Shown here: in pieces, positions 4,652 through 28,901 of the stretch
Numbering within the stretch: the stretch's first letter is position 1
How the letters are laid out: each line of letters begins with the position of its first letter
Assembly (NCBI GenBank): GCA_963785075.1
Contig: CAWATW010000004.1
Span: forward strand, 338,516-402,515
Direction: 5' to 3'
Source of the DNA: an uncultured bacterium
GTDB lineage: Bacteria > Actinomycetota > Acidimicrobiia > Spongiisociales > ZC4RG35
DNA length: 64,000 nt
Notes under the pieces: generated by a model
Database searches by the model: none
Seen by the model: only the letters and a program-made list of their open reading frames with translations
Told to the model about the DNA's origin: nothing
Made by a program: the position numbers and the translations under genes

Positions 4652-5933
4652 GCTCCGCAGCCTGCCGCTTCTCGTCCAAGGGTCCCTCGCGCGGGTCGTC
4701 GGGCACGAGCTGGAGGTACGCGGGCTCCGACTCCGACTGGGAGACGCTCTGGAAGTGACGGGCGTCGACGGATCCAGGCTGGCCGAGGTCGTCGCCGTCG
4801 AGCCGGAAGGCGCCACCGCCCTGGTATACGGCGACACCACGGGTTTGGGTCGCGGCGACCGCGTCACACGCCTCGACAGCGTGCCGGGTGCGGTCGTCGG
4901 ACCGGCACTCGTGGGAAGGGTCGTGGATGCACTGGGGCAGCCGATGGACGGGAAGGGACCGATTCTCGGCGAAGCCGTCAGGCTCGACTCCAACACCCCG
5001 GCCGCCATGGAGCGGCGTCGCATCGACACTCCGATCACCACCGGTGTGCGCCTCATCGACACCCTCTGCACCATCGGGAAGGGCCAGAGGGTCGGCATCT
5101 TCGGCGGATCGGGGGTCGGCAAGTCCACCCTGCTGGGAATGCTCGCGAAGGGGCAGCAAGCCGACGTCGCGGTGATCGGGCTCATCGGTGAGCGCGGCCG
5201 CGAAGTTCGTGAGTTCATCGAAGACGAACTCGGTCCCGAAGGAATGGCCCGGTCGATCGTCATCGTCGCAACGTCGGATCAACCGGCCCTGCTCCGACTC
5301 CGAGCCGCCCTCTACGCGACCCGGGCGGCGGAGTGGTTCGCCGATCGCGGAAACGACGTTGTGCTGATGATGGACTCGATCACCCGTCTCGCAATGGCCC
5401 AGCGCGAGGTCGGCCTCGCTGCGGGCGAGCCTCCGACCGCACGTGGCTACACCCCCTCCGTGTTCTCCATGCTGCCGAAGATCCTCGAGCGGTCGGGACC
5501 GCGGGTCCATGGCACCATCACGGCCCTCTACACCGTGCTCGTCGACGGCGACGACATGAACGATCCCGTGGCAGATGCCGTTCGAGGAATCCTCGACGGA
5601 CACCTGGTTCTGGACCGCAACCTCGCGGTTCAGGGTCGATATCCCGCCATCGATCCCCTCGCTTCGCTCAGTCGTCTCGCCCAGAAACTGTGGAACGAGC
5701 GCCAGGCACGGGTGGCTTCCGCCACACGCGATGCGCTCGCTGCCGCGACCGAGGTCCAGGAATTGGTCGAAGTCGGCGCGTACGTGTCGGGATCGAACCC
5801 TCGGGCGGACAAGGGCCTACGGGTCGCGCCGCAGCTCGTGGAGTTTCTCAGACAGCGGCCGTCCGACCTGACACCGGCGGAGAGGTCATGGCAGGCGCTG
5901 TCAGAGATCTGCACGAGAGGTGAGCTCATATGA
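4641..5933 (+). CDS. fliI: flagellum-specific ATP synthase FliI
   Basis: Walker A GGSGVGKSTLLGM, Walker B VVLMMDSITRLA, F1/T3SS ATPase fold. Confidence 0.92.
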   Translation: MADELRSLPLLVQGSLARVVGHELEVRGLRLRLGDALEVTGVDGSRLAEVVAVEPEGATALVYGDTTGLGRGDRVTRLDSVPGAVVGPALVGRVVDALGQPMDGKGPILGEAVRLDSNTPAAMERRRIDTPITTGVRLIDTLCTIGKGQRVGIFGGSGVGKSTLLGMLAKGQQADVAVIGLIGERGREVREFIEDELGPEGMARSIVIVATSDQPALLRLRAALYATRAAEWFADRGNDVVLMMDSITRLAMAQREVGLAAGEPPTARGYTPSVFSMLPKILERSGPRVHGTITALYTVLVDGDDMNDPVADAVRGILDGHLVLDRNLAVQGRYPAIDPLASLSRLAQKLWNERQARVASATRDALAAATEVQELVEVGAYVSGSNPRADKGLRVAPQLVEFLRQRPSDLTPAERSWQALSEICTRGELI

Positions 5934-6346
5934 AAGACATGTCCCGCCTCCTCCGGGTCCGCAAGATCTGGGAGAAGCAGGCCCGCTCACAACTGGGCGA
6001 GGCCACCACCGAACTGAACGAAGCGGAGACCCAGGCGGTCAAGTCTCTCGAGGAGCATCGGACCACGACCTCGGCCCCTCCTACGGGAACCCGGCTCGAC
6101 GACCTGACGGTCCGCCGTATCGCCGGCATGGCTACTCACGAGAGGTACACGGCGGCCGAGCTGGTCCGCCAGCAGGCCGATCACCGGGCCCGGGCTGCAC
6201 ACGGCGCGTGGCGCCGGAGCGCTCAGGACCTCGAGGTCACCGACAAGCTCGAAGAGCGCAGAAAGCAGGCGCTCGCCTATCTCGCACGCCGATCCGCCGA
6301 AGCGACCCTCGACGAGCTGATGGCGATGAGGAAGAGAACGAAGTGA
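5930..6346 (+). CDS. fliJ: flagellar export chaperone FliJ-like coiled-coil protein
   Basis: 138 aa, predicted coiled coil. Conserved position after fliI. ATGA overlap with fliI. Confidence 0.6.
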   Translation: MKDMSRLLRVRKIWEKQARSQLGEATTELNEAETQAVKSLEEHRTTTSAPPTGTRLDDLTVRRIAGMATHERYTAAELVRQQADHRARAAHGAWRRSAQDLEVTDKLEERRKQALAYLARRSAEATLDELMAMRKRTK

Positions 6347-6942
6347 GCGGGATTGCATCGGTGATGGCGCGAATCAGCCAGATTCAATCGATGGCGACAC
6401 ACGTCTCTGGCGGGTCCGGGCCCACGTTCGAGGCCGCGCTCGCAGAGGCAGCGTCGAGTTCGAACGCCGCCGCCACCAGCTCTCCGTCGACTCGAACCCG
6501 CACGAGCGGAGTCGGCTCGACGGATCTACCCGTCGACACGCTCCCGACCGGCGCTGCCCGCTGGAAGGCGTCGATCGAGCGGGCGGCCCGCGCCAACGGG
6601 ATCGATCCCAAGCTCCTGACCGCCCTGGTGTGGGTGGAGTCGGGGTTCGATCCCAGTGCCGTGTCACACGCCGGTGCGATCGGGCTCGCCCAGCTCATGC
6701 CCGCCACCGCCGAAGGTTTGAAGGTGGATCCGTACGACCCCGAGCAGAACCTCGACGGGGGCGCCCGTTTCCTCGCTGCCATGGTCGATCGCTTCGGAAG
6801 CACCGAGCTCGGCCTGGCCGCGTACAACGTCGGACCCGCACGAGTCGGGTCCCTCCTCAACGACCAACCCGGCGTTCCCGTGGCCGAAGGCTACGTGAAC
6901 GCAGTACTCGACCGATTCCGACAACTTGGAGGAACCGAGTGA
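6343..6942 (+). CDS. flagellar-locus lytic transglycosylase (SLT domain, FlgJ/SltF-like peptidoglycan hydrolase)
   Basis: ..LVWVESGFDPSAVSHAGAIGLAQLMPATAEGL..NLDGGARFLAAMVDRFGSTELGLAAYNVGP.. is an SLT catalytic-domain signature. GTG at 6343 overlaps the fliJ stop. Alternative ATG at 6364. Confidence 0.7.
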   Translation: MSGIASVMARISQIQSMATHVSGGSGPTFEAALAEAASSSNAAATSSPSTRTRTSGVGSTDLPVDTLPTGAARWKASIERAARANGIDPKLLTALVWVESGFDPSAVSHAGAIGLAQLMPATAEGLKVDPYDPEQNLDGGARFLAAMVDRFGSTELGLAAYNVGPARVGSLLNDQPGVPVAEGYVNAVLDRFRQLGGTE

Positions 6943-8174
6943 TGATCCCTCCCTTGATGGGCTCGACCCCCGTCCCAGAGAGCACCGACCAGCCCGGCGA
7001 GGGGTTCGCGAACGCGATGGCCGCGGCCTTGGTCATGGTGACGCCGCCTCCCGCCGCTCCGCCGGCTACGTCGGTTGCGTCGGCCCCGTCGACCGGCCAG
7101 GACGGGGCGTCCGCCCCGGCGCCTGCGATTCCCCCCGGTTCCAGGCTCACCGTCCCCGCCCCTGCACCCTTCACGACGATGCCGGACCAGATCGCCCGTC
7201 TGGCGACGCCGACCTCGCCTGAACACGACGCGGATCTGGGCCAGGCCGCCGGTTCGATGGTTGCTTCCGCCGGAAACCCGACGCGGCTCGCGACCGCCGG
7301 AAGCACGACACCCGTCGTGACCCCCGCGGACCCGGTGCCGTCCCCACCGACGGACCTAGAGATGATCGAGCGGCCGCCAGGACACGTCGAGTTGGTCGAG
7401 CCGCCCGCTGCGCCCACGGAGGAACCGGCCGAAGTGGTGACCCCCGATGTGATCACCGAGCTCACGACGGCGGAAGCAACCGCAGAGGTGCCCCGCCCGG
7501 CCGTGGTCACATCGCCGACGGCTCCGCCCCGCGTCGAATCCCCGATGCCCCTCACACGCCCCGCAGGCGAACCAACGGCGCCTGCGGTCATGCCATCGAA
7601 CGGTCCACGGCCCGAGGTTCCGGTCGCCGCGGAAGCCGTCACACCGCACGTCGGTGCCGACCCTGCTCCGGCCACGACCCCGACGAGCAGCGAGAGCGTC
7701 TCGGTCCCCGACGCCGGTCCCGTTGAACCCGCCCGCCAGGCGGAACTCCCCGGACGCGAACCGGTCGAGACGACCACGTCCGTCGCAGCTGCCGAGCCCG
7801 CACCCGGCCACACCTCGGGCGTTTCCTCATCCGAGCCTCAGGCCGCTCCCTCGTCGGCGTTGCGCAGGGTGGAAGAAGCCGTACGGCGTCTCGAGAACGC
7901 TGCTCCGCCGCGGACGATCACCGTCACCGTCGACGACCACGGACTGCATCGTGTGACCGTGAGCCTGATGTCCGATGGGGTCAGGCTCACGGTTCCAGAC
8001 GGCGCAACCACCGATCCCCAGTTGGTCGCCGACATGGAGCGTGCACTCGAGAGCCGTGGTTTCGACATGAGCGGTCGCCGGCGCGGCGGGAGCCCCGACC
8101 AGACCGATGATGCCGGCGACTTCGTTCCGACCCAGGCGCAGACACGCCGTACCGACGCCGGATACCGGCTTTGA
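6942..8174 (+). CDS. fliK: flagellar hook-length control protein FliK (Pro/Ala-rich)
   Basis: Extended P/A/T-rich linker and a C-terminal ..TITVTVDDHGLHRVTVSLMSDGVRLTV.. hook-length-control-like domain. GGAGG RBS 9 nt upstream. The start overlaps the SLT gene stop. Confidence 0.65.
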   Translation: MIPPLMGSTPVPESTDQPGEGFANAMAAALVMVTPPPAAPPATSVASAPSTGQDGASAPAPAIPPGSRLTVPAPAPFTTMPDQIARLATPTSPEHDADLGQAAGSMVASAGNPTRLATAGSTTPVVTPADPVPSPPTDLEMIERPPGHVELVEPPAAPTEEPAEVVTPDVITELTTAEATAEVPRPAVVTSPTAPPRVESPMPLTRPAGEPTAPAVMPSNGPRPEVPVAAEAVTPHVGADPAPATTPTSSESVSVPDAGPVEPARQAELPGREPVETTTSVAAAEPAPGHTSGVSSSEPQAAPSSALRRVEEAVRRLENAAPPRTITVTVDDHGLHRVTVSLMSDGVRLTVPDGATTDPQLVADMERALESRGFDMSGRRRGGSPDQTDDAGDFVPTQAQTRRTDAGYRL

Positions 8175-10029: not shown

Positions 10030-10037
10030 TGCATGAC

Positions 10038-10066
10038 GGTCCTCGGGCCCACAGGGCCCGAGGACC
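10038..10066 (+). terminator. perfect 13-bp stem/3-nt loop hairpin immediately after the flgE stop
   Basis: ggtcctcgggccc-aca-gggcccgaggacc. No U-tract, which is usual for high-GC genomes. Confidence 0.45.
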
Positions 10067-10067
10067 G

Positions 10068-10088: not shown

Positions 10089-10371
10089 GCCAGACCCCCG
10101 CCCCTTCCTCGTCGACACCCTTCCCCATCGGCACAGAAGGGGTCGCCCACCCGTCTCAGCACTCACACCGTGGCCCGAAAGGCGGTTTGGCTCCTCGCAG
10201 CGAGCGAAGCGAGCGGCCTCGCCCCTGGCTTTTCGCACTCCAGCCAATGTCCTTACGCGGCTCTAGGACGCGCCGACGGGATCTTTGCAGGGTCGATGGA
10301 CGACCCCGACAGACACACGGAGGTGTCGAAGTGCCTACGCGCACCAGGACAAACAAGAGTGGGGGCTCCCG

Positions 10372-13002: not shown

Positions 13003-13413
13003 ATGTGGACGTCGACGGTTTCGACCCTTCTGGTGTTCGTGGGTGCCCCGCTGGTGATCTGGTGGATCCGACGGACCAAGGTTGGTGGTCTCGGAGGAGG
13101 TCTCCGAGTCGCCTCCCGCACTGCCCTGACTCGCAACGGGGTCGTGGCGGTGATCGAGACCGATGGGCGCCGCTTCCTCGTTGGTGCCACCGACCACGGA
13201 ATCAATCTCCTGACCGAGCTCGATCGCGACCTCGACGACGAGGATGTCGTCGTGCCGATGGAGCCGATGTCGTTCATGGACGAGGAACAGCCGATGGTGC
13301 CATTGACCCCATCGCACGCAGGGCCAGGGAAGAGCCCGATCGAAACGCTGCGAGCCATGACGGTTCGCAAGCCAACCCGCTCGACCTTCCCTCATGTCCG
13401 CCCTCCGTCCTGA
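13003..13413 (+). CDS. fliO: flagellar biosynthesis protein FliO/FliZ
   Basis: Single N-terminal TM plus ..VVAVIETDGRRFLVGATDHGINLL.. Sits directly before fliP. Confidence 0.6.
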   Translation: MWTSTVSTLLVFVGAPLVIWWIRRTKVGGLGGGLRVASRTALTRNGVVAVIETDGRRFLVGATDHGINLLTELDRDLDDEDVVVPMEPMSFMDEEQPMVPLTPSHAGPGKSPIETLRAMTVRKPTRSTFPHVRPPS

Positions 13414-14236
13414 GCCAACCCGCGCACTGCGGCTCTTGATCGCCATCACGGCGGTGTGCTCTGTGCTCGCGTCTGCGCTCCCCGCGTCGGCTCAGACGCT
13501 GACGACCCCGGAAGTGACCGTGCCGGCCGTGACCGTACCCGAGCCGGGAGCAGTACCCGAGGTGCCTTCGATCGCTGTTCAGGTCAACGGTGTCGAGGGA
13601 GGTCTCACGCAAACGGTCTCTCTGGTCTTGCTCATGACGATGGGATCGCTCCTCCCGGGCCTCCTGCTGCTGGCGACGAGCTTCACACGATTCATCGTGG
13701 TGCTCGGCCTCACCCGAAACGCGGTAGGAATCCAGACCGCTCCCCCTGCACCGGTGCTGATCGGGATCGCCCTGTTCCTCACATTGTTCGTCATGAAACC
13801 GGTGCTGACACAGGTGTGGGACGACGCCGCCCAACCGCTCATCGACCAGGAGATCTCGATCGATGAGGCCTACGACAGGGGCTACGCGCCACTCCGTGAG
13901 TTCATGCTTGCACAGACCCGCGAGGAGGATCTCCGACTCTTCCTGGACCTGGCCGAAGGGCCGCAGCCCGAGTCGCCGGAAGAGATCGGCGCCACCGTGC
14001 TCATTCCCGCCTACATCGTCTCGGAACTCCGGACCGCGTTCATCATCGGCTTCGTGGTGTTCGTCCCATTCCTCATCATCGACCTCATCGTGTCGACCGT
14101 CCTCATGGCGCTCGGAATGGTGATGCTGCCGCCAACCTTCATCTCGCTTCCCCTGAAGCTCCTGCTGTTCGTCCTCGCCGACGGGTGGGTGCTGTTGATC
14201 GGGTCACTCGTCTCGTCGGTGCAGGGTGGGGGTTAG
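13394..14236 (+). CDS. fliP: flagellar export apparatus protein FliP
   Basis: Signal peptide, ..FTRFIVVLGLTRNAVGIQTAPP.. and ..GFVVFVPFLIIDLIVSTVLMALGMVMLPP.. FliP signatures. Confidence 0.9.
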   Translation: MSALRPEPTRALRLLIAITAVCSVLASALPASAQTLTTPEVTVPAVTVPEPGAVPEVPSIAVQVNGVEGGLTQTVSLVLLMTMGSLLPGLLLLATSFTRFIVVLGLTRNAVGIQTAPPAPVLIGIALFLTLFVMKPVLTQVWDDAAQPLIDQEISIDEAYDRGYAPLREFMLAQTREEDLRLFLDLAEGPQPESPEEIGATVLIPAYIVSELRTAFIIGFVVFVPFLIIDLIVSTVLMALGMVMLPPTFISLPLKLLLFVLADGWVLLIGSLVSSVQGGG

Positions 14237-14239
14237 CTC

Positions 14240-14503
14240 GTGAGCGACGTCGAAGTGATCGAGATCCTCCTCGGGGCCCTCGACCTGGTGACCCGGCTCG
14301 CCGGACCGATGCTGGCGGCAACCCTCATCATCGGTGTGGGCGTTTCGATCCTCCAGACGGTCACGCAGATCCAGGAAATGACACTGACCTTCGTGCCCAA
14401 GCTCATCGCAGCGGGAGCGATCCTGGTCTTCGGTGGCAACTGGATGCTACGGGAGCTGGTGAGCTGGACCACACTCCTGTGGGAACGCATCGGGTCGATG
14501 TGA
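14240..14503 (+). CDS. fliQ: flagellar export apparatus protein FliQ
   Basis: 87 aa, 2 TM, GTG start. Confidence 0.85.
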   Translation: MSDVEVIEILLGALDLVTRLAGPMLAATLIIGVGVSILQTVTQIQEMTLTFVPKLIAAGAILVFGGNWMLRELVSWTTLLWERIGSM

Positions 14504-14504
14504 C

Positions 14505-15266
14505 ATGGAGGCTGTGATCGACGTCGCCGGGATGACCGGCATCGTCCTCGCCATCACACGGGTGGGTGCCTTCTCAGTCGCCTCGCCCGTACTCAAAGCG
14601 TTTCCGGCGACCGGACGCAGCGCGTTCGCGTTGGCGGTCGGCCTCGCGTTGGCCCGCCCCACTCCCATGCCGACCTCCCTGTCCGGTTTCATCGTGGTGA
14701 TGGCCACCAACATCGGCGTCGGCGTAACGCTCGGCTTCCTGACCGGCATCCTCCTACACGCCTTCGAGGTAGCGGGTTCGATCATCGACCTGAACTCGGG
14801 GCTCAACGCCAGCCAGATCTTCGACCCGCTCAGCGGTCAATCCGTCTCGGTGTTCGGTCGCGCATTCAACCTGGCGGCAATCACGTTGTGGCTCGTCATG
14901 GGCGGCGACCGGCTCGCCGTCGAGGCTCTCGCCGCAACCGTGGAGATGATTCCGCTGAACGGTGCGTTGTCCTTCGCTCCCGGCATCGCCGAGACTGCCG
15001 TGGCCCTGGTTGCGCAGATGCTGCTGGCGGCGGTGCAGCTCACCATTCCTGCGCTTGCTGCCCTCATGGTGGTCGAGGTCGCACTTGGCGTGGCCGCCCG
15101 CTTCGCTCCGCAGGCGAACGTCTTTGCTCTGGGCCTCCCTGCCAAGCTGGCCGCTGCCCTTGCAACGGTGTCTCTGGTCGTGATGGCCTTTCCCGGCGCG
15201 ATCGGCACCTCGATGGACGCCACCAGAGATGTGGTGGTGACCACCATCCGCGGGCTGGGTGGCTAG
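14505..15266 (+). CDS. fliR: flagellar export apparatus protein FliR
   Basis: 253 aa polytopic protein in the conserved position. Confidence 0.85.
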   Translation: MEAVIDVAGMTGIVLAITRVGAFSVASPVLKAFPATGRSAFALAVGLALARPTPMPTSLSGFIVVMATNIGVGVTLGFLTGILLHAFEVAGSIIDLNSGLNASQIFDPLSGQSVSVFGRAFNLAAITLWLVMGGDRLAVEALAATVEMIPLNGALSFAPGIAETAVALVAQMLLAAVQLTIPALAALMVVEVALGVAARFAPQANVFALGLPAKLAAALATVSLVVMAFPGAIGTSMDATRDVVVTTIRGLGG

Positions 15267-15426
15267 CGCTCGACCAGGTACACGGGTGTCGGTGTCCGTG
15301 CCGACAGCCGACGACCGGCATGGGCACGAGGGGACTCGAGGGCCATAGGCGTCTTCCGTTGTCCACCAAGCACGTCCGAGAAACCTCGGGGCTGGAACTG
15401 TCACACCACTTCGCGATAATCGACGA

Positions 15427-16665
15427 GTGGGAGCAGTTGCAGAGATCCTCCATCTCGACCTCGATGCGTTCTATGCATCGGTCGAGCAGCTCCTACGCCC
15501 CGAGCTCCGGGGCAGACCAGTCGTGGTAGGAGGCGGCGTGGTACTCGCCGCCTCCTACGAGGCCAGGGCCTTCGGTATATCGGCCCCCATGAACATCAGG
15601 CGGGCGAGAGAACTGTGCCCGCACGTCATCTCGGTGGGCGGGTCATTCGAGAAGTACTCCGAGCTCTCGCAACAGGTGATGGACATCTGCCGTGACGCCA
15701 CTCCCCTGGTGGAACAGATCTCGATCGACGAGGCGTTTCTCGACGTGTCAGGCTCCATCCACCTGCTCGGTGCCCCCGCCGACATCGGGGCCGACCTCAG
15801 AGCACGGATCCGGGCCGAGGTCGGCCTTCCCATCTCGGTGGGTGTGGCATCGACCAAGTTCCTCGCCAAGGTGGCCTCGGGCCAGGCCAAACCCGACGGC
15901 ATGCTCGTCATCGACCCCGCTCGTGAGCTCGAGTGGTTGCACGCGCTCCCCGTACGCGTGATCTGGGGTGTCGGACCGGTCACGGAGACCAACCTCATCG
16001 CCCACGGGATAGAACGGGTCGGACAGATCGCCGAGGCGCCTCCCGAGGCGCTCGCACGGTGGTTGGGACCTGGCGCCGGTCGACACCTCCACGCACTCGC
16101 CTGGAATCGTGACCCCCGATCCGTCAAGGTTGGAGGGCGGGCGGGTTCCGTCGGTGCCCAGAGCGCCCTCGGTCGCGGCCTCACCGCCGACTCGGACCTC
16201 GGCCGCGTCGTGCTGGGGCTCGCAGATCGAGTCTCGGGACGTATGCGCAAGAAGGAACGAGCGGGTCGCACGATCACCGTGCGGGTTCGCTTTGCCGACA
16301 TGGCCAGCGTGACACGGTCCGTCACCCTCCCGGCCGCAGTGTCGACCACGGCAGCGCTTCATCATGCGGGCCTCGAGCTGTTGGCCTCGGCTCGCGCCGA
16401 TCGACCAGGGATCGTGACGCTGGTTGGCATCAGCGTCTCTCATCTCGAGCAGGGCGAAACCCTCCAACTCGAGCTGCCCTTCGACCAGGGTGACCCGACC
16501 CGTGCAGGCAGCCCTCGTGGGGCGGCGCACCTCATGATCGACGAACAGGTCGACGCAGCCAGGGAACGTTTTGGGAAGGATGCGGTCGGCCGAGCATCGG
16601 TGATGCTCGATCGGAACGCGAGGGGCGTTCCCGACGGCTTCCGCGAGTTGGCCGAGAAGGAGTAG
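15427..16665 (+). CDS. dinB: DNA polymerase IV (Y-family, DinB)
   Basis: ILHLDLDAFYASVEQ, RPVVVGGG, AASYEARAFGI, SIDEAFLDVSG and VGVASTKFLAKVASGQAKPDG are all DinB motifs. GTG start. Confidence 0.85.
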   Translation: MGAVAEILHLDLDAFYASVEQLLRPELRGRPVVVGGGVVLAASYEARAFGISAPMNIRRARELCPHVISVGGSFEKYSELSQQVMDICRDATPLVEQISIDEAFLDVSGSIHLLGAPADIGADLRARIRAEVGLPISVGVASTKFLAKVASGQAKPDGMLVIDPARELEWLHALPVRVIWGVGPVTETNLIAHGIERVGQIAEAPPEALARWLGPGAGRHLHALAWNRDPRSVKVGGRAGSVGAQSALGRGLTADSDLGRVVLGLADRVSGRMRKKERAGRTITVRVRFADMASVTRSVTLPAAVSTTAALHHAGLELLASARADRPGIVTLVGISVSHLEQGETLQLELPFDQGDPTRAGSPRGAAHLMIDEQVDAARERFGKDAVGRASVMLDRNARGVPDGFRELAEKE

Positions 16666-16765
16666 AAGCGACCGGACGCGAGCAGGCGGATTTCCGCCCG
16701 ACGCCGAACGCCCGACGGAACCCGCAAACCACAACACGGGGGCCGGGCAGGCATAGGCTGGAACG

Positions 16766-17512
16766 ATGCGGCTGACGGTCATCGGGTCTGCGGGCGGATA
16801 TCCGGCACCGGGTGTTGCCACCTCCGGCTACCTCATCGACCACGGCGAAACCAGGATCTGGTGTGACATCGGTCCGGGCACGGTGGTCGGGTTCCCAGAC
16901 CGGTTGGACACTGTGGACGCGGTCGTCGTCTCCCACGAGCACCCGGATCACTGCCTCGACCTGATCGCGCTGTTCCACGCCCTGGCGTACCGCTTGGGGC
17001 CACCACCAGGGCCTCTGGCGGTGTATGCCCCGCGCCCGGCGATCGACAAGGTCAGAGCCTTCGTGACTCCCGACCAGACGGAACTCATCGACCGAACGTT
17101 CTCGTTCCATCCCATCGAGGTCGATTCGATCGTGGAGGTCGGATCGATTCGGGCCACCTTCGCCGAGACCACACACCCCGTGCAGACGGTGGCGATGCGA
17201 TTCACGGCCGACGGCCACAGTATCGCCTACACCGGCGACACCGGCCCCGCCGGCGACTGGACGAGGGTCGCCGTCGACGCCGACCTACTCCTGTGTGAGG
17301 CGACGTTCGTGGGCACACGAGACGACTACCCCTACCCGTATCACCTCAACGCCTTCGAAGCCGGGCGCATCGCAGCCGCGAGCGGCGTCGACCGGTTGGT
17401 ACTGACGCACATCCCGATGCATTGGGACCCGGCACGATCGCTGATCGAGGCGGGGACCCACTTCGACGGGGATCTGCGCCTCGCCGAGCCCGGTGCCTCC
17501 TGCTCGATCTGA
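16766..17512 (+). CDS. MBL-fold metallo-hydrolase
   Basis: VVVSHEHPDHCLDL (HxHxDH motif) plus downstream His/Asp ligands. Confidence 0.75.
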   Translation: MRLTVIGSAGGYPAPGVATSGYLIDHGETRIWCDIGPGTVVGFPDRLDTVDAVVVSHEHPDHCLDLIALFHALAYRLGPPPGPLAVYAPRPAIDKVRAFVTPDQTELIDRTFSFHPIEVDSIVEVGSIRATFAETTHPVQTVAMRFTADGHSIAYTGDTGPAGDWTRVAVDADLLLCEATFVGTRDDYPYPYHLNAFEAGRIAAASGVDRLVLTHIPMHWDPARSLIEAGTHFDGDLRLAEPGASCSI

Positions 17513-17615
17513 TTCCGACGGCTTACGCGATCGGTCCCCAGGCCGACTGGAATCCTGATCAGGGACGAGAGAACGACGCCCAGGGACGTGGCGGCCACCC
17601 TCCATTTGGGATGCC

Positions 17616-18665
17616 GTGAGCGAAGACAAGTCCCAGAAAACCGAAAAGGCGACATCGAAGCGCCGCCGTGACTCCCGTCGCAAGGGTCAGATCCCCAAGT
17701 CGGCGGAGATCGGCGTGGCCGCCTCATTCGTCACCGCTCTCATCGCCCTGCGAGCATTTGGCCCGGCCACCGTGCGGGTCTTGTTCGAGGACGCCCGGCA
17801 CATCATCGGCTCGGCCGGCTCGAATCCCAGTCTCGGTACGGTTGCAGGGCTTGCGGGCACCATGTTTCTCGTAGGTGTCGCACCGTTCCTCGGGATCGCA
17901 GCGATCGCCGGAACCGCCGGCGCCGTCGCCCAGGTGGGCTTCGTCCTCACGCCAGAGGCCGCCAAGCCCAAACTGTCCAACCTCAATCCCAAACGCGGTC
18001 TCGACAAGCTCAAGCCCGCCACCGCAACATGGGAACTCGCTCGCACGGCCTTGAAGCTGGGGCTCTTCGTCGCCCTCGCCTGGGGCCCCGTTGTAGAAGG
18101 CATCACCGAGCTCGCCGGCGTCCGGACCCTCGACCGGGCGATCGCCGACGTCTCGGCAGTCACCTGGGACGTTCTCGTGAGAGCAGCGATGTTGGCACTG
18201 CTCATCGGTCTGTCCGACTACGCGTTCAATCGTTGGAAGACGGCGAAGGGGATGCGCATGTCGAAAGAGGAGATCAAGCAGGAGTACAAGACCAGCGAAG
18301 GCGACCCCCTCGTCAAGGGCCAGCGGCGTCGCCGTGCCGCCGAAACGAACCGGAATCGGCTCATCAACGTTGCATCCGCCGACGTGGTCGTGACCAACCC
18401 GACACACTTCGCCGTCGCGCTGAAGTACGACCGCGCCGAACCCGCACCGCGGGTGGTTGCAAAGGGAACGGATCGACATGCCAAGAAGATCCGCAGGATG
18501 GCGGCACGACATGGAGTACCGATGGTCGAGAACCGTCCCCTCGCCCGCAGCTTGTTCCGGCGCGTGAAGGTCGGCGGGTTCGTTCCCACCGCCCTATTCG
18601 AAGCCACCGCCGTCGTGTTGGCCGAGGGGTACCGCCGCCGGGGTAGAAGGCCGAGCGCAGCATGA
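17616..18665 (+). CDS. flhB: flagellar export apparatus protein FlhB
   Basis: ..SQKTEKATSKRRRDSRRKGQIPKS.. N-terminus, 4 TM, NPTHFAVAL autocleavage site. Confidence 0.9.
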   Translation: MSEDKSQKTEKATSKRRRDSRRKGQIPKSAEIGVAASFVTALIALRAFGPATVRVLFEDARHIIGSAGSNPSLGTVAGLAGTMFLVGVAPFLGIAAIAGTAGAVAQVGFVLTPEAAKPKLSNLNPKRGLDKLKPATATWELARTALKLGLFVALAWGPVVEGITELAGVRTLDRAIADVSAVTWDVLVRAAMLALLIGLSDYAFNRWKTAKGMRMSKEEIKQEYKTSEGDPLVKGQRRRRAAETNRNRLINVASADVVVTNPTHFAVALKYDRAEPAPRVVAKGTDRHAKKIRRMAARHGVPMVENRPLARSLFRRVKVGGFVPTALFEATAVVLAEGYRRRGRRPSAA

Positions 18666-20716
18666 GGCGCGGAGCGGGAGCCCAGATGTTGACGCCACTG
18701 CTGCTCGTGGGCGTGGTCCTCATGATGGTGGTGCCAATGCCACCTGTGATGCTCGACGTGATGCTGGCGGCGAACTTCACGCTGGCAATCCTTGCACTGC
18801 TTGCCGCCATGCTGCTGAAGGACTCGCTCGAACTGTCGGTGTTCCCGTCGTTCCTTCTCGTCGCCACCCTCACACGGCTTGCCCTCAACGTGTCGTCGAC
18901 GCGGCTCATCCTGCTCAACGGCTACGCCGGCAAGGTGATCGACGCATTCGGGACGTTCGTCATCGGCGGATCCGTCGTGGTCGGCCTGGTCGTGTTCCTG
19001 ATCCTGGTGATCATCCAATTCGTCGTCATCACGAACGGTGCCGGCCGGGTGGCCGAGGTCGCGGCTCGATTCACCCTCGACGCCATGCCCGGCAAGCAGA
19101 TGGCGATCGATGCCGATCTCGGGTCGGGTCTGATCAACGAGGCGCAGGCGAGGGAGATGCGGGCCAAGATCGCCAAGGAGGCCGACTTCTACGGCGCCAT
19201 GGATGGTGCGTCCAAGTTCGTCAAGGGTGATGCCATCGCCGGCGTCATCATCACGTCGATCAACCTGATCGGTGGGATGGCGATCGGGCTCGGATCGGCC
19301 GGGCTGGGTTTTGGGGAGGCGGTCGACACCTACTCACGCCTCTCGGTCGGCGACGGCCTCGTCTCGCAGATCCCGGCGTTGCTGATCTCGATCGCCACCG
19401 GTCTGCTGGTGACGAGGGTCGGCTCGGACAACGCCATGGGTTCCGACCTCGCCCGTCAGGTATTCGGCAACCCCGACGCCCTCAGGATCGGATCCATCGT
19501 CCTCACCGGGATGGGCCTGCTGCCCGGGCTTCCAAAAGTCCCCTTCTTCGGGATCGCTGCACTGCTGTTCTTCCTATCCACACGGGCCGCCGGCACCAAA
19601 GCCGACGACGAGATTCCCCTCGACGGCGAGCCAGAGATCCGCACCAGCCCCGACGACCCTGAAGCGCTCATCGAACGGATGCGCCTCGAGCCGTTGGAGC
19701 TGCACCTCTCCCACGAAATCCTCGATCTGGTGGACCCCGAGCGCGGCGGCGACCTCATGGAGCGAGTCAGATCGCTCCGCCGGCAGATCGCCGACGAGCT
19801 CGGAGTAGTCATCCCACTGCTGCGCGTGCGAGACGACGCCACGCTCCCCGAGTCGGCCTACAACATCCTCTTGCGGGGGATCGAAGTCGGCTCCGGTGTG
19901 GCACCCCGTGACCAACTCCTGGCTCTACCCATGGGCGACGGGTCGGACTTGCGAGCGATGGGTGGGTCGCCGACCACTGAGCCGGTCTTCGGACTCGAGG
20001 CGTTCTGGGTGCCGGACTCTGCCCGCAGCGCAGCCGCCGCCACCGGCGCCACGGTCGTCGATCGCTCATCTGCCGTGGTCACCCACCTCGCCGAGGTGGT
20101 CCGGACCAACGCCTCCCAGCTCCTGAGCCGGCAGGACGTGTCGATGCTGCTCGAAGGGCTTCGATACGACGAGCCCATCCTCGCCAACGAGGTCGGAACC
20201 GACCAGCTTCCGCTCCAGACCCTGCACGCGGTCCTCCGGGCACTCCTCGACGAACGGGTGTCCATTCGCGACATCGGCCGGATCATCGAAGCGGTGGCAT
20301 CCAAGGCGACCGAAACGAGGTCGGTCGAGGCGCTGGTGGCTGCGGCCAGGGTGTCACTGGGATCGGCCATCGTCGGCAAGATCGCACCGGGTGGCCGGCT
20401 CAAGCTCATCACACTCGAGCCCACCCTCGAAGCTGCATATCACGAGGCGATCCGCGAAGTCGACGGGACATCGCATCTGGTGCTCGACCCGGGAAAGCTG
20501 GAACGCCTGAGAGCGGACACGACGGCAGCGCTGTCGGCGGTGTCCGGTGAACCGTTGGCTCTCGTCTGCAGCCTGGCGCTGCGCAAGCCCCTCCACAGAA
20601 CCCTCACATCACTCGGCGTCGACCTCCCCGTGGTGGCCTACCCCGAGCTTCCCGCACACCTGGAACTCATCCCGATCGGAGTGATCGAACATGGCGAACC
20701 AACCCACGCTGTCTGA
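18662..20716 (+). CDS. flhA: flagellar export apparatus protein FlhA
   Basis: 684 aa with an FHIPEP-type N-terminal membrane domain and a cytoplasmic domain. ATGA overlap with flhB. Confidence 0.92.
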   Translation: MRRGAGAQMLTPLLLVGVVLMMVVPMPPVMLDVMLAANFTLAILALLAAMLLKDSLELSVFPSFLLVATLTRLALNVSSTRLILLNGYAGKVIDAFGTFVIGGSVVVGLVVFLILVIIQFVVITNGAGRVAEVAARFTLDAMPGKQMAIDADLGSGLINEAQAREMRAKIAKEADFYGAMDGASKFVKGDAIAGVIITSINLIGGMAIGLGSAGLGFGEAVDTYSRLSVGDGLVSQIPALLISIATGLLVTRVGSDNAMGSDLARQVFGNPDALRIGSIVLTGMGLLPGLPKVPFFGIAALLFFLSTRAAGTKADDEIPLDGEPEIRTSPDDPEALIERMRLEPLELHLSHEILDLVDPERGGDLMERVRSLRRQIADELGVVIPLLRVRDDATLPESAYNILLRGIEVGSGVAPRDQLLALPMGDGSDLRAMGGSPTTEPVFGLEAFWVPDSARSAAAATGATVVDRSSAVVTHLAEVVRTNASQLLSRQDVSMLLEGLRYDEPILANEVGTDQLPLQTLHAVLRALLDERVSIRDIGRIIEAVASKATETRSVEALVAAARVSLGSAIVGKIAPGGRLKLITLEPTLEAAYHEAIREVDGTSHLVLDPGKLERLRADTTAALSAVSGEPLALVCSLALRKPLHRTLTSLGVDLPVVAYPELPAHLELIPIGVIEHGEPTHAV

Positions 20717-21482
20717 CACACCAACCGTCACCATCGAGGCCGCCACGGTCGAAGAGGCACTTGGTCGCCTGACCGAGGAAGTCGGCCCCGGAGCCCGGAT
20801 ACTGCGAGCCGACCGAGTCCGGCGCGGCGGGATCGCCGGGTTCTTCGCCCGCGAGATGGTTGAGATCGAAGCAGAGGCTCCCGGCGGCGAGGGCGTCGCC
20901 GGCGCCTTCGATCGAATGCTGGAAGCCGCCGAGAGCGCAGACGAGCGCCCTGTGCTCGACGACTCTCTCACCCGCCCCACCCTCGAGTCGGGGCCGCCGG
21001 CGGCGCTCACTTCACGGCGGCGACCGGTCACCACCACCGTGTGGGACAGCGCCAAGATGCTCGAACTGGGCCTTCCGGGTGCCTTGGTGCAAGCCGTGGC
21101 CTCCCTCGACCCCTCCGACGACCTCGGTCACCTCACGGCGCTCGTAGAGGTTCTCACGCCCGTTTGCGGGTCGCTGCCCCCCCAACCCATGCGGCTGGTC
21201 GGCGAACGCGCCGAGCGGCTCCGCTCAGCGGTCGCCATCGATGAGGGCGACACCGGTCTCATCCATCTCGTCGTGGGTGACGAGCTGCCCGCAACGCTGC
21301 CCGGGGTTCCGGCCGTTGTGTCGTGGGTCAGTGACGGCGGCGTCGCCAGAGCCATCAGTCTGGCCCTGGGCACAGGAGCCTTGCTGGGCTACGGAATCGG
21401 AAGCTCCTTCGGCGCACCGGTTCGTCGGATCGCTCCCCTCGACGCCGCGATCTCGATTCGCGAGCTCATGGACCGGACATGA
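20691..21482 (+). CDS. FlhF-like protein: N-terminal B-domain only, SRP-GTPase (NG) motifs not detectable
   Basis: ..TVTIEAATVEEALGRLTEEVGPGARILRADRVRRGGIAGFFAREMVEIEAEA.. parallels B. subtilis FlhF ..TAATMQEAMKLVREELGEDAVILNSKKVKTGGFLGFFKKKNFEVIAA.. No GxxGxGKT/DTAGR motifs in the rest of the protein. 26-nt overlap with flhA. Confidence 0.5.
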   Translation: MANQPTLSDTPTVTIEAATVEEALGRLTEEVGPGARILRADRVRRGGIAGFFAREMVEIEAEAPGGEGVAGAFDRMLEAAESADERPVLDDSLTRPTLESGPPAALTSRRRPVTTTVWDSAKMLELGLPGALVQAVASLDPSDDLGHLTALVEVLTPVCGSLPPQPMRLVGERAERLRSAVAIDEGDTGLIHLVVGDELPATLPGVPAVVSWVSDGGVARAISLALGTGALLGYGIGSSFGAPVRRIAPLDAAISIRELMDRT

Positions 21483-21718
21483 ACGGACCTCAATACCTCA
21501 AGCGGCTCATCGCCATCATCGGGCTCTTGCTGATGCTGCCCATCGGGTACCAGCTGATCATGGCCACGGTGACACCGAGGGATGCGGCAATACGGGCAGG
21601 CGCTTTGTTCGTCGGCGTGGTCATGGCTCGCAAGGCGGCCGACCTCGCTCCCAGCGGCCGGACCGTGCTGATTCCCCTCCAGGACGAGCGCCCAGTCGAG
21701 ACACCGGTCGAGGGCTGA
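21479..21718 (+). CDS. small predicted membrane protein (79 aa), terminal gene of the flhBA unit
   Basis: ATGA overlap with the preceding stop, one hydrophobic segment. Confidence 0.35.
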   Translation: MNGPQYLKRLIAIIGLLLMLPIGYQLIMATVTPRDAAIRAGALFVGVVMARKAADLAPSGRTVLIPLQDERPVETPVEG

Positions 21719-22079: not shown

Positions 22080-22886
22080 TCACCCGGCGAGCGGATCGGC
22101 TTCCAGTTCCGACTCCGGCAGGGTCGCAAACACTTGCGCCGTGGCTTCGGCGAAGAGGCGGGACTCCGTCTCGACGAACCCAACGTGGCCATCGAGGTCG
22201 AGACGCTTCATAGCGATCCGGAGTGGTATGTCCAGACATCGTGTGGGGGACTCGTCTTCGACCGCGCACATCGCTGCGGCGAGCGCCCGCTCCATCTCGG
22301 TGACGGGCTCGTGATGGGCGGCGACGGCCGCCACGATGTCGGTGGGGAGATTCCACTCGGCGAGCATCTTGGTGCCCATCTCGAGATGATCGGTTTCGTA
22401 CGCCATTCGCTCGCGACGCAACATCTGCTGGTCCTGGTACCCCCGCATCCACTGCTTCCGACGCCATGCCAGGAAGCCTTCGTCCGTCGTGAGCAGTCCG
22501 GCCGTGCCGGCGGCGGAGAACAGCCCCGCCACGAACAACTGCTCGTTCTCGGCCCGGGAGAAGCCGAGGAGGCGTCCGATCAGCTTGGCGGCACGGCCCA
22601 CGACGAGAGACTCCTCCCACAGCTCAGGGGCACCCCAGGTGTCGACCAGCTCGCGGTTCAACGACGCCATGGCGAGAGCACCCACCGAGCGGCAGCCGAC
22701 TCGGATCACAGCCTCCATCACCGTTCCCACGGGATACACGGCGCCGACGTACGCAGAGTTGGCATACCGCACGACCGCTGCTGCCGTGTCGGGGATCGTC
22801 GCCACGCGGGCAGCTACCTCATACAGGTCCGGATCGTTGGCCATAGCCGCCGTCCAGAGCTCTACCTTGCGCGAGCCGAGGTCCAT
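22080..22886 (-). CDS. HDOD-domain protein (paralog 2)
   Basis: ..VYPVGTVMEAVIRVGCRSVGALAMASLNREL.., ..LFVAGLFSAAG.., ..AHHEP.. are HD-related output domain signatures. About 65% identical to the adjacent paralog. Confidence 0.7.
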   Translation of the reverse strand: MDLGSRKVELWTAAMANDPDLYEVAARVATIPDTAAAVVRYANSAYVGAVYPVGTVMEAVIRVGCRSVGALAMASLNRELVDTWGAPELWEESLVVGRAAKLIGRLLGFSRAENEQLFVAGLFSAAGTAGLLTTDEGFLAWRRKQWMRGYQDQQMLRRERMAYETDHLEMGTKMLAEWNLPTDIVAAVAAHHEPVTEMERALAAAMCAVEDESPTRCLDIPLRIAMKRLDLDGHVGFVETESRLFAEATAQVFATLPESELEADPLAG

Positions 22887-22998
22887 GATGCGTCAATATC
22901 TCCTTGGAGGACCGGTCGGCCGTTTCGGACGCTGGAAAAGACCTCGGGAGGCGTTGATCGGGCCTGTACGCCGATTCCGGCGCCCAGGCGTGGATCTG

Positions 22999-23867: not shown

Positions 23868-24740
23868 TCAGCCCGCTTCGTACAGACGAGCGTTGCCGGT
23901 GGTGGCGGACTCGAGCAGCGACTCTGCATCGAGTCGGGTGCGCCAGTTCGATTGATCGGCCATGCGAGCGACGTAGGCGGCTCGTGCGCGCTTCCCGGGC
24001 GCAGAATCCGGGGAAGGCTCGACGCCCTCGTATTGGGTCGAGAAGAACGAGCGCATGGCCATCAGCGCCTCCGACCGGATCTGACTGACCCGGGCCTCGG
24101 TGAGACCGAGATCGTCGGCGATGTCCTGTAGGAGCTCCCCTTCCAGGTAGTAGCGGGAGATCACCTCGGCCTGAACGGTCGGAAGATGGCGAACGGCGTC
24201 CACGAGCGACCCCCGAAGCTCGCGCTGCTCGAGCGCCACCTCGGGGAGCGTCTCCACCCGCTCTTCTTCCACGCGGTCGGCAAGCGAGGTTTCGTCGGTC
24301 TCACTCGGTTGGTCGAGGTGGAGCAGTGTGCTGGTGGCGGCGTGGGCCTGCCGGCTGTTGAGCTCGGCGACGGAGATACCCAGGAAGGCGGCGATCTCGT
24401 CGGTGGTGGGGGGACGTCCGTGCTGCTCCTCGAGCCCGGTCTGGGTCTCCTGGATCTCGCGGAGCCGGCGGCGAACGGATCGGCTGGCCCAGTCCCGGGT
24501 CCGTGTGGAGTCGATGATGGCACCGCGAATCCGGATTGCGGCGTAGCGGGCGAACGGTATCCCGGATTCGGGGTCGTACCGCCGGCTGGCCTCCACGAGA
24601 CCGAGTGCGCCGGCGTTCCAGAGTTCGGAACGATCGACATGACGCGGATACCGCGCCGACACTTCACTGACGATGTGGCCTACGAGATCGAGGGTTTCCG
24701 AGACGAGCTCGTTCTGCTCCTCCGCCGTCAACGCTGCCAT
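23868..24740 (-). CDS. fliA: flagellar sigma factor sigma-28 (FliA/WhiG family) with a ~55-aa C-terminal extension
   Basis: ..RYPRHVDRSELWNAGALGLVEASRRYDPESGIPFARYAAIRIRGAIIDSTRTRDW.. is region 2; ..LLQDIADDLGLTEARVSQIRSEALMAMR.. is region 4. Start set at MAALTAEEQ (24740) so as not to overlap the divergent gene at 24880; the upstream in-frame ATG at 24818 (MALKDQ..) and the ORF-track start at 24905 would run into that gene. Confidence 0.8.
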   Translation of the reverse strand: MAALTAEEQNELVSETLDLVGHIVSEVSARYPRHVDRSELWNAGALGLVEASRRYDPESGIPFARYAAIRIRGAIIDSTRTRDWASRSVRRRLREIQETQTGLEEQHGRPPTTDEIAAFLGISVAELNSRQAHAATSTLLHLDQPSETDETSLADRVEEERVETLPEVALEQRELRGSLVDAVRHLPTVQAEVISRYYLEGELLQDIADDLGLTEARVSQIRSEALMAMRSFFSTQYEGVEPSPDSAPGKRARAAYVARMADQSNWRTRLDAESLLESATTGNARLYEAG

Positions 24741-24879
24741 GATGTGGACCCCCAAATGCGTGCCGAATGCCTTACGTTTCAGGGATCGGACAATCGGGGG
24801 CTGATCCTTGAGGGCCATATTTGCATAGTCACTCGCCCGAATCACGAAACCTCGGCGCGATCGGCCGACAGGTCCCTCG

Positions 24880-25329
24880 ATGACAACGGCACTGGCCTCT
24901 CCCACGTACTACGACCTGATCGGTCTCCTCGCCAACGAACGCCGACTCCTCGAGCGGCTTCTGTTCCGCCACGCAGAGATCTCGATGCTGATCGCCGCGG
25001 GCGAGCACCGATTCGTCGGCCGCGCCGTCGACGAGGCCCTCGAAGTCGAGGCCGAGCTCGCCGCATGTGACCTCACCAGGGCGATGATGCTCGTAGGCCT
25101 CACGCCTCACGGTGACGACATGTCGATGGCCGAGCTCATCTCCGAGGCACCCGCCGAGTTCGAGACGCCGCTCGGCGATCTGACCCGCGACATGAAGCGA
25201 ATCATGGCCCAGGTGGATCGATATCGTCGCGAGGCGGCAGCTTGGGCCGGGGAACGAGCCGAGCAGGTTCGGCAGGCCATCGAGCGCTTCGGCGCCGAGA
25301 CCTACTTGGACGGCCGGTTGGGGTCCTGA
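24880..25329 (+). CDS. FlgN-family-like protein (paralog of the flgN at 28332-28844)
   Basis: LLANERRLLERLLFRHAEISMLIAAGEHRFVGRAVDEALEVEAEL aligns with LHAERQLLEHLLFKLIEARLVLAADEARFLPQAMREVEAIVDRV of the other copy. 3' end overlaps csrA convergently by 28 nt. Confidence 0.5.
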   Translation: MTTALASPTYYDLIGLLANERRLLERLLFRHAEISMLIAAGEHRFVGRAVDEALEVEAELAACDLTRAMMLVGLTPHGDDMSMAELISEAPAEFETPLGDLTRDMKRIMAQVDRYRREAAAWAGERAEQVRQAIERFGAETYLDGRLGS

Positions 25330-25562
25330 AGCTTGAGTCCCGTCGCCTTCGTCGACAACAAGCTGGACTTCAGGTCGGTGGACGCAGCGGCTGCACGGTT
25401 CTCAGCCAGCACCTGCTCGTATATCTCCGCACGATGAACCGCGAGACTCCGCGGTGCATCGACGCCCACTCGTATCTGACCGCCTCGAACCTCGAGGATG
25501 GTGATCACAACATCGTTCCCGATGACGATGGACTCGCCGGCTCGTCTGCTCAGCACCAGCAT
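25302..25562 (-). CDS. csrA: carbon storage regulator CsrA
   Basis: MLVLSRRAGESIVIGNDVVITILEVRGGQIRVGVDAPRSLAVHRAEIYEQV is canonical CsrA. 1-nt TGATG overlap with fliW. Confidence 0.88.
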   Translation of the reverse strand: MLVLSRRAGESIVIGNDVVITILEVRGGQIRVGVDAPRSLAVHRAEIYEQVLAENRAAAASTDLKSSLLSTKATGLKLQDPNRPSK

Positions 25563-25954
25563 CAGCCGGCGCTCACAGGCAGCAGCGCCCTGATCGGGTA
25601 GTCCTGGTCGGTGAGTACGACCTGACGCCCCATCCGGGTCTTCACGTTGACGATGAATGGTCCCAACAGATTCATGTGTGCACTCTTGCGGTCGGAGTCC
25701 AGCGTAACGGCGCAGAACACGACCGCATCCTGTTCCTGCTCGATACCCAGCCCCGCCTGGTCGACGTCGGTGAGCTCGGGGGCATAGTCGGGAAAGAACA
25801 GCCACGGCACGCCAACGACGATCGCCAAGTCGGGATCATCGACGTTCTGGAGCAGCTGGAACGCTCCGTCGTCGACGAGTTCGACGAGTTGGAAGCGATG
25901 GGCATCCGGAAACCCGGGAATCCCATCGTCGAACTCCAGATACTGCTCATCCAT
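25562..25954 (-). CDS. fliW: flagellar assembly factor FliW
   Basis: 130 aa, ..GIPGFPDAHRFQLVEL..DPDLAIVVGVPW.. Forms a fliW-csrA pair as in Bacillus. Confidence 0.8.
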   Translation of the reverse strand: MDEQYLEFDDGIPGFPDAHRFQLVELVDDGAFQLLQNVDDPDLAIVVGVPWLFFPDYAPELTDVDQAGLGIEQEQDAVVFCAVTLDSDRKSAHMNLLGPFIVNVKTRMGRQVVLTDQDYPIRALLPVSAG

Positions 25955-28844: not shown

Positions 28845-28901
28845 CGTCAGCATCCTGTCGGCTCTCGAATTGGTGAATAAAGGCTTCGAGAGGGTTTCTG
28901 T

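Follow-up and report, generated by a model that had tools for sequence, protein, structure and literature searches.

The window analysed here, a 64,000-nucleotide stretch of contig CAWATW010000004.1 from an uncultured, high-GC (~65%) bacterium of the Acidimicrobiia, carries a flagellar gene cluster at 1-29 kb, in which a dinB gene and a gene for a metallo-beta-lactamase (MBL)-fold hydrolase stand between fliR and flhB. The fliP (13394-14236), fliQ (14240-14503), and fliR (14505-15266; Bac_export_1, 1.4e-45) genes, all on the + strand, are tightly packed, with spacers of 3 and 1 bp, and fliR is the last gene of a run that lies downstream of motA, motB, and fliL. A spacer of 160 bp (15267-15426, +), with dinB promoter-like elements at its 3' end, separates fliR from dinB (15427-16665, +; GTG start, 412 aa). 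The MBL gene (16766-17512, +; ATG start, 248 aa) follows after 100 bp and flhB (17616-18665, +; GTG start) after a further 103 bp, the latter overlapping flhA (18662-20716, +) by 4 bp; the surrounding flagellar genes abut or overlap. The dinB gene is intact, both genes of the pair read in the same direction as the flagellar genes, all on the + strand, and their GC content, overall and at third codon positions (GC3), equals that of the flanks. A preliminary description of this DNA had placed the pair between fliR and flhB, co-directional with them, and domain, family-score, and motif matches bear this out; it had also given gaps of 160 and 104 bp, of which the first is exact and the second, on the flhB side, is 103 bp.

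By its sequence, dinB is a Y-family DNA polymerase IV (Pol IV), the ordinary chromosomal Pol IV of the lineage. Its product matches the Pfam domains IMS (1.2e-48), IMS_C (3.2e-22), and IMS_HHH (2.2e-05), and its score against the NCBIfam model PRK03858 'DNA polymerase IV', 532.4 bits, exceeds the cut-off of 367. The segments LDLDAFY (D11, D13, Y16) and SIDEAFLDV (D101, E102) align with IIHVDMDCFF and SLDEAYLDV of the solved structure 4IR1, and also with 7YLL, so that the catalytic Asp and Glu residues and the aromatic steric gate (Y16) match their positions in solved Pol IV structures; the alignment on which the preliminary description had made its identification depend thus succeeds. Beta-clamp-binding motifs are of the QLxLF or QLxLxL type, and a clamp-like QLELPF can be read from the sequence at residues 347-352.

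Orthologs of this dinB at two other loci, L091 (70% identity) and L092 (66%), lie in unrelated contexts and have no MBL neighbour. In L092 (411-8345), the gene is found between the secY-adk-map genes and those of the ribosomal proteins L36 and S13, with a 1570-aa STAND/kinase/beta-propeller gene as its neighbour; here, too, an insertion has occurred at the border of a conserved operon, and this copy is without the GTC-N12-GATAMT motif described below for dinB. A dedicated dinB-MBL two-gene module was considered and rejected, as neither the dinB orthologs (66-70%) nor the MBL homologs (48-53%) found elsewhere are adjacent to each other.

The MBL protein matches Lactamase_B_2 (5.5e-22) and carries SHEHPDH at residues 56-62, an instance of the [T/S]HxHxDH signature, which defines the 'atypical class-II phosphodiesterases' Rv1339, YhfI, and CpdA (PMC9293780). 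The further metal ligands, H137, D158, and H215, are invariant in 33 homologs, and D158 is taken to be the metal-bridging Asp. The nearest solved relatives by sequence are Bacillus subtilis YhfI (6KNS, E 5e-31) and Bacillus anthracis BA1088, and the AlphaFold2 (AF2) model of the protein (pLDDT 93) has YhfI as its top structural match (6KNS/6KNT, TM-score 0.88), at about 30% sequence identity. The NCBIfam model NF041851 (cyclic-nucleotide phosphodiesterase) aligns end to end (E 5.9e-47), with a score of 160.2 bits, which is below the equivalog cut-off of 400. Since all the Acidimicrobiia homologs tested, including the rph-linked P0017, score between 145 and 166 bits, the model looks tuned to closer relatives of Rv1339. 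The latter enzyme hydrolyses cAMP, cGMP, and 2',3'-cyclic mononucleotides, and does not act on cyclic dinucleotides (PMC9293780). The product of the window gene is thus most likely a binuclear-metal phosphodiesterase of the YhfI/Rv1339/CpdA type, a predicted cyclic-mononucleotide phosphodiesterase by sequence and modelled fold.

Two other identities were considered for this protein and set aside. There was no match to PF23023, the Apyc1 model, at E <= 0.001 for the window protein, homologs gave only faint or weak ones, and Apyc1 structures rank 25th or lower for the model, with TM-scores of 0.73-0.76 and 13-14% identity. For RNase Z and RNase BN, the best score, 81.7 bits, stayed below the cut-off of 252, only partial matches were obtained, and the protein has 248 aa where about 300 would be expected; RNase Z is also structurally farther from the model than YhfI is. 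Distant homologs of the MBL protein are found in other surroundings: P0017 (in L087, 48% identity) lies in front of rph and a Ham1-family gene, presumably the same neighbours as those of Rv1339, and P0012 (in L085, 53% identity) lies among metabolic genes.

The rarity of this arrangement was assessed on 80 flhB loci from many phyla, obtained by scanning genome contigs with FlhB (matches of at most 39% identity). In all 77 loci with upstream sequence, less than 1.3 kb separates the end of fliQ from the start of flhB, which therefore leaves room for fliR only (fliR itself was not scored), and in none of these 77 informative loci was DinB or MBL matched within 10 kb. Six of the control loci belong to other Actinomycetota (Conexibacter, Solirubrobacterales, and others), and there, too, nothing but fliR fits before flhB. 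The adjacency that the pair interrupts is, therefore, as conserved in other bacteria as had been supposed. No description of such an arrangement came up when the literature was searched for dinB in combination with fliR and flhB.

Relatives with the pair at the same site fall into three related lineages (A, B, and C), with FlhB proteins 73-95% identical. In lineage A (the window and L081; FlhA 99%), fliR, dinB, the MBL gene, and flhB all read in one direction. Lineage B (L083, L084, L093, and L094; FlhA 86.5% for L083) keeps dinB, the MBL gene, and flhB in this order and direction, with a dinB-MBL gap of 23 bp, and has, between fliR and dinB, a Peptidase_S15 gene of opposite orientation. In lineage C (L082 and L088; FlhA 85-87%), the order is again fliR, dinB, MBL gene, flhB, with dinB and the MBL gene on the opposite strand, so that the MBL gene diverges from flhB (in L088, across a control region of 242 bp). 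Each of the three arrangements is represented by at least two independent assemblies, and a metagenome scan with a DNA pattern from the 5' end of flhB added just two contigs, both arranged as in L083, and so no arrangement beyond these three. Close relatives are present in the ENA (European Nucleotide Archive) assemblies ERZ25039603 and ERZ25039600. Two more distant relatives, L089 and L090 (FlhB 60%, FlhA 75-78%), show the same cluster synteny without dinB and the MBL gene: fliR directly precedes flhB, as the preliminary description had asked of related genomes, with only a non-coding gap (245 bp in L089, 94 bp in L090) between them.

Between lineages A, B, and C, DinB is 76-81% identical and FlhA 84-87%, and the divergence of the MBL protein tracks that of FlhA as well. 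This parallel divergence indicates that the pair was present in the common ancestor and was inherited vertically, the insertion predating the split of the lineages. It also speaks against the idea of a recent horizontal acquisition, or of a mobile-element insertion disrupting the flagellar operon. Such an event would fit the break in an otherwise unbroken adjacency, at a site that varies further through a peptidase gene and strand flips. Nevertheless, the GC content and GC3 are identical to those of the flanks, gene calling and domain matching revealed neither a transposase nor an integrase in the segment and the adjoining genes, flhB as well as flhA is intact, and the closest homologs of DinB and of the MBL protein are other Acidimicrobiia proteins (those of the MBL protein, FlhB, and DinB all come from Acidimicrobiia metagenome assemblies). 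No flanking repeats were found in 15200-17700 by a search with arms at most 60 nt apart, which is blind to repeats bracketing the 2.35-kb segment. A recent arrival is, on balance, highly improbable.

The passage from arrangement A to arrangement C is not a single inversion, because both genes switch strand without any change in the order fliR, dinB, MBL gene, flhB; it must have taken two rearrangements or more, and no intermediate was seen among the recovered contexts. Several features of these relatives may be recorded here. The lineage B peptidase gene encodes a 653-aa Peptidase_S15/PepX_C protein (2727-4688, -, in L083; also in L084 and L093) and constitutes a second, independent change of the spacer. 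In lineage C, imperfect runs of 7-nt repeats occupy the intergenic regions (about 5840-6000 and 6770-6830 in L082, and the equivalents in L088): CCAGTAG CCAGTAG CCAGTAG, plus GCCAGAA-like units, between the MBL gene and flhB, and GTGAACG GTCAACG GTGAACC GTGAACC just upstream of the dinB motif. The L082 flhB gene (around 5610) is split into two frames in the ENA contig, whereas a Logan contig with an identical MBL protein gives 365 aa; an indel of the assembly, rather than a pseudogene, is the probable explanation of the split.

Each gene of the pair is preceded by promoter-like sequence of its own. Upstream of dinB lies a PafBC-type (RecA-NDp-like) motif, TGTCAC-N10-GATAAT (15399-15420, +), whose hexamer ends 6 nt before the GTG. 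In PafBC-dependent promoters, the motif is tGTCgg(N10)tA(N3)T, with a strictly conserved GTC, and the element stands in for a -35 box (PMC8635444). The form [T/G]GTCA[C/G]-N10-GATA[A/C]T-N5/6 precedes the dinB GTG in lineages A, B, and C and in L091, whose ortholog, outside any flagellar context, keeps TGTCAG-N10-GATACT-N5-GTG. When seven dinB loci are aligned, the invariant columns are GTCA, CG, A.A.T of the -10 hexamer, and the GTGG of the start, the upstream regions having otherwise diverged. The GTC, the spacing, and the A..T of the motif are present in six of the seven loci; the seventh, L092, could be aligned only through a gap of 25 columns and was counted as non-matching. With the hexamer ending 6 nt before the GTG, the predicted transcription start falls on the start codon, which would make the mRNA leaderless. 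Leaderless mRNAs are common in Actinobacteria. The element thus fits a leaderless PafBC-type DNA-damage promoter, from which dinB may be induced upon damage. Mycobacterial dinB genes are not known as classic PafBC targets. No WYL-domain gene (pafBC) was found among the open reading frames (ORFs) scanned in the 64-kb window.

The MBL gene has a -10 hexamer, TAGGCT (16754-16759, +), exactly 6 nt before its ATG. A TANNNT-N6-ATG arrangement precedes the MBL gene in every lineage, with varying inner bases (TAGGCT, TACACT, TACTGT), and also in L085 (TACCCT). Of the 4025 ATG and GTG trinucleotides in the window, the MBL start alone has TANNNT at positions -12 to -7. The gene thus appears to have its own -10 box and to be expressed as a leaderless mRNA, promoter activity being predicted from this conserved placement. 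A sigma-70 consensus scan of 12.5-21.5 kb returned no promoter, a result that is uninformative because the scan needs a -35 box, which PafBC-type and many other actinobacterial promoters do not have.

The flhB gene, in turn, is preceded by a putative sigma-28/WhiG1-type promoter, CTTA-N16-GCCGACTG (17522-17549, +), some 67-70 nt upstream. In seven flhB loci (the window, L081, L082, L083, and L088, plus the insertion-free L089 and L090), a CT[TCA][AT] box is followed by a non-conserved 16-nt spacer and GCCGAC[ACT]G. The strict pattern CTHW-N16-GCCGAC occurs four times in the window, each time immediately before a gene of the flagellar cluster and in the direction of that gene: the flhB site, CTTA-N16-GCCGACGG upstream of motA (10252-10279, +), one upstream of an HDOD-domain gene (22913-22940, -), and one upstream of the first gene of the flgK operon (28855-28882, -). 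The looser TT-N17-GCCGACNG has seven matches, against 0.99 expected, a number reached by none of 100 shuffled sequences; a scan for GCCGAC with any -35 box proved too noisy and was not used. The motif also precedes the HDOD gene in L081, L083, L088, L089, and L090, where its -35 box varies, and motA in L089. Sigma-28/WhiG1 sites are defined by a -35 box CTCA (or TAAA), a spacer of N16-17, and a GCCGA-type -10 box with a central CGA, less than 200 bp from the start of a motility gene (PMC12871210), and the flhB site agrees with this definition. For this group of Acidimicrobiia, CT[TCA][AT]-N16-GCCGAC[N]G is put forward as the candidate consensus of flagellar sigma-28/WhiG1-type promoters, and the FliA/WhiG-family sigma factor encoded about 5 kb downstream of flhB (23868-24908, -; regions 2, 3, and 4; 181.9 bits against TIGR02479 FliA_WhiG, with a cut-off of 189.6) as the candidate reader of the GCCGAC promoters.

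As the insertion-free relatives carry the flhB motif too, the fliR-flhB junction was probably an operon boundary already. The preliminary description had considered that an insertion split the operon, with the GTG start of flhB as its mark. An insertion did take place, into what was likely a promoter-bearing spacer beforehand and not into the inside of an operon; the GTG is real, but it is the conserved start of the clade and not an insertion scar, because the insertion-free L090 starts with GTG as well. The N-terminus of FlhB, VSEDKSQKTEK, is kept in five loci. Between the promoter motif and flhB lies a conserved leader of about 65 nt (17550-17615, +), with TCAGGGA, CCAGGGAC, and GGGA just before the GTG. 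Its consensus fold is a weak hairpin with almost no covariation, and no structure is claimed. Over the seven loci, the leader holds two CA(G/C)GGA motifs plus the GGGA beside the start codon, which resemble CsrA binding sites; csrA (MLVLSRRAGESIVIG..., canonical; ~25302-25562, -) and fliW (25562-25954, -) are found in the same cluster.

The gaps themselves contain little that would stop transcription. The preliminary description had noticed no obvious terminators, and indeed none of the three gaps holds a consensus terminator, nor does any gain stability on folding relative to shuffled sequence (z of -0.29 for fliR-dinB, -0.02, and +0.02, all about 0). For reference, the hairpin just after flgE (10037-10067, +), with a perfect stem of 14 bp, has a minimum free energy of -49.8 kcal/mol against -33.0 for its shuffles (z -4.67; 0 of 200 shuffles as stable). 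An Rfam search of the window returned one tRNA only, and no match in the gaps. Without hairpins, read-through from a flagellar promoter into dinB, the MBL gene, and flhBA would be possible in the co-directional lineages. In this scenario, the sigma-28-type motA promoter would transcribe through fliR into the pair and flhBA, so that Pol IV and the phosphodiesterase would be made together with flagella in the window and L081, which share the arrangement and have all genes co-directional; the three gaps have no terminator-like hairpin, though a strong one follows flgE. Against this stand the opposite orientation of the pair in L082 and L088, the opposite-strand gene that blocks transcription from fliR in L083 and L084, and the absence of the pair from L089, L090, and all 77 other flagellar loci, as well as the dinB orthologs unlinked to flagella in L091 and L092. 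Moreover, dinB and the MBL gene have conserved -10 boxes in leaderless position and no Shine-Dalgarno sequence, and such starts would presumably be translated poorly from within a read-through transcript. Conserved co-orientation and co-occurrence, by which the two genes would count as members of the flagellar regulon, are not observed. The coupling of dinB to that regulon by co-transcription, suggested in the preliminary description, is, therefore, unlikely; relatives with the same insertion and with conserved promoter-like elements of their own, which it had named together with terminators as evidence against its suggestion, do exist, although terminators were not found.

Another explanation would make the MBL phosphodiesterase a lineage-specific motility regulator, which degrades a cyclic nucleotide of flagellar control and is kept by flhB for this reason, dinB being a passenger. 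The MBL gene does adjoin flhB directly in all three lineages, on either strand, and in L082 and L088 the two genes diverge from a shared control region; the nearest characterised family degrades cAMP and cGMP, and HDOD-domain genes of the cluster are preceded by sigma-28-type motifs. Nevertheless, the flagellated sisters L089 and L090 do without the MBL gene, its distant homologs lie in unrelated contexts (P0017 by rph and the Ham1-family gene, P0012 among metabolic genes), and its -10 box is of the housekeeping TANNNT type, not the flagellar GCCGAC box. Adjacency in three related lineages can be plain inheritance, and this regulatory role is improbable. Cyclic-dinucleotide signalling components are encoded close to the motility genes, as a large GGDEF-EAL protein (54489-57359, +) and at least one HDOD-domain protein (22080-22892, -) are found near the cluster.

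The most satisfactory explanation, to which a probability of about 70% can be given, is that two autonomous genes were inserted long ago into a spacer between operons and have been inherited vertically since. Two self-contained genes would have come, in one sub-clade, into the spacer between the motA...fliPQR and flhBA operons. There, dinB would be transcribed as a leaderless mRNA from its own PafBC-type (RecA-independent DNA-damage) promoter, made up of a GTC-containing -26 element and a 10-nt spacer before the -10 hexamer, and the MBL gene, likewise leaderless, from its own TANNNT -10 box. Transcription of flhBA would be driven, at least partly, by its own sigma-28/WhiG1-type promoter (CTTA-N16-GCCGAC), present before the insertion. 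The insertion may thus have landed in, or been tolerated at, a pre-existing operon boundary, and expression of the export gate need not have been disturbed. The placement of dinB and the MBL gene in this Acidimicrobiia sub-clade appears to be a quirk of gene order, with no link between mutagenesis and motility.

Several observations pull the other way, beside the low family-model score of the MBL protein. The dinB ortholog of L092 has no PafBC-type motif, and the 'AC' that follows GTC in the dinB motif differs from the 'gg' of mycobacterial PafBC promoters. The pattern TGTCR-N11-NANNNT has a low information content and occurs 15 times in the window against 10.5 expected; by itself, the motif does not reach statistical significance there, and support for it comes from its positional conservation. 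Terminator-like hairpins are absent after fliR, dinB, and the MBL gene. Finally, the pair has stayed at its exact site through at least two rearrangements, for which selection, and not only inertia, could be responsible. If so, the YhfI/Rv1339-like phosphodiesterase might tune a cyclic-nucleotide signal that gates expression of the export apparatus, while, in the co-directional lineages, read-through would tie Pol IV levels to the motile state. This proposal, distinctly improbable as it stands, would, if true, newly connect the turnover of a second messenger with motility and mutagenesis in Actinomycetota.

The main value of these results is corrective: genes that share the direction of a conserved operon in which they lie need not be co-transcribed with it, and the 'operon' in question had probably been divided beforehand by a sigma-28-type promoter within it. 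For uncultured flagellated Acidimicrobiia, there are three by-products, namely a candidate consensus for FliA/WhiG promoters, a predicted PafBC-style and leaderless promoter architecture outside the well-studied Actinomycetia, and the example of an inter-operon spacer as a tolerated, repeatedly rearranged landing site. Should a minority reading be true, cyclic-nucleotide turnover or translesion synthesis would be linked to motility; nothing that was found requires it.

The remainder of the cluster can be described briefly. It starts with a rod gene (360-836), followed by fliE, fliF, fliG, fliH, fliI, a weak fliJ match, a 514-aa ORF, flgD, and flgE. After the strong hairpin come motA, motB, fliL, a FliMN_C-domain gene (fliN-like), fliO, fliP, fliQ, and fliR, and, beyond the pair, flhB, flhA, two genes without a Pfam match, and the HDOD gene. 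The end is formed by the FliA/WhiG-family sigma factor gene, a FlgN-like gene, csrA, fliW, a flagellin-family gene, and flgK. For the 514-aa ORF (6630-8174, +), which separates the fliJ-like gene from flgD, Pfam gave no match; judged by its position, it could encode the hook-length protein FliK. The two genes directly after flhA (20691-21482 and 21479-21718, +; 263 and 79 aa) stand at the same place in all the related clusters, among them L089 and L090, which lack the insertion. In other bacteria, this place is often occupied by flhF and flhG.

Compared with known systems, the window DinB shares its IMS, HhH, and little-finger domains, catalytic residues, and steric gate with the actinobacterial PRK03858 DNA polymerases IV; only its location is unusual, and a C-terminal tail of about 60 aa follows the QLELPF motif. 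With the atypical class-II phosphodiesterases (Mycobacterium tuberculosis Rv1339, B. subtilis YhfI, and Corynebacterium glutamicum CpdA), the MBL protein shares the fold, a length of about 250 aa, and the signature, whereas its gene sits beside dinB and flhB and its score is far under the NF041851 cut-off. The dinB upstream region has in common with PafBC promoters the GTC element, the 10-nt spacer, and the A...T of the -10 hexamer. The reported flagellar WhiG1 consensus of Actinoplanes is CTCA-N16-17-GCCGAACT, and several WhiG sites are reported inside actinobacterial flagellar clusters (PMC12871210). CT[TCA][AT]-N16-GCCGAC resembles this consensus, as well as the sigma-28 -10 box GCCGATAA, and likewise has a central CGA, several sites per cluster, and a FliA/WhiG-family sigma gene nearby, while the 3' half of the -10 box differs in the window sites (GCCGACNG). 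The sampled clusters of Thermoleophilia type (L024, L054, L064, and L067), in contrast, have no fliR-flhB spacer, and their only nearby match to the pattern lies about 2.4 kb upstream. Overall, the system is not of a new kind: each of the two proteins adds a member to a known family, and their position, though unusual, can be explained.

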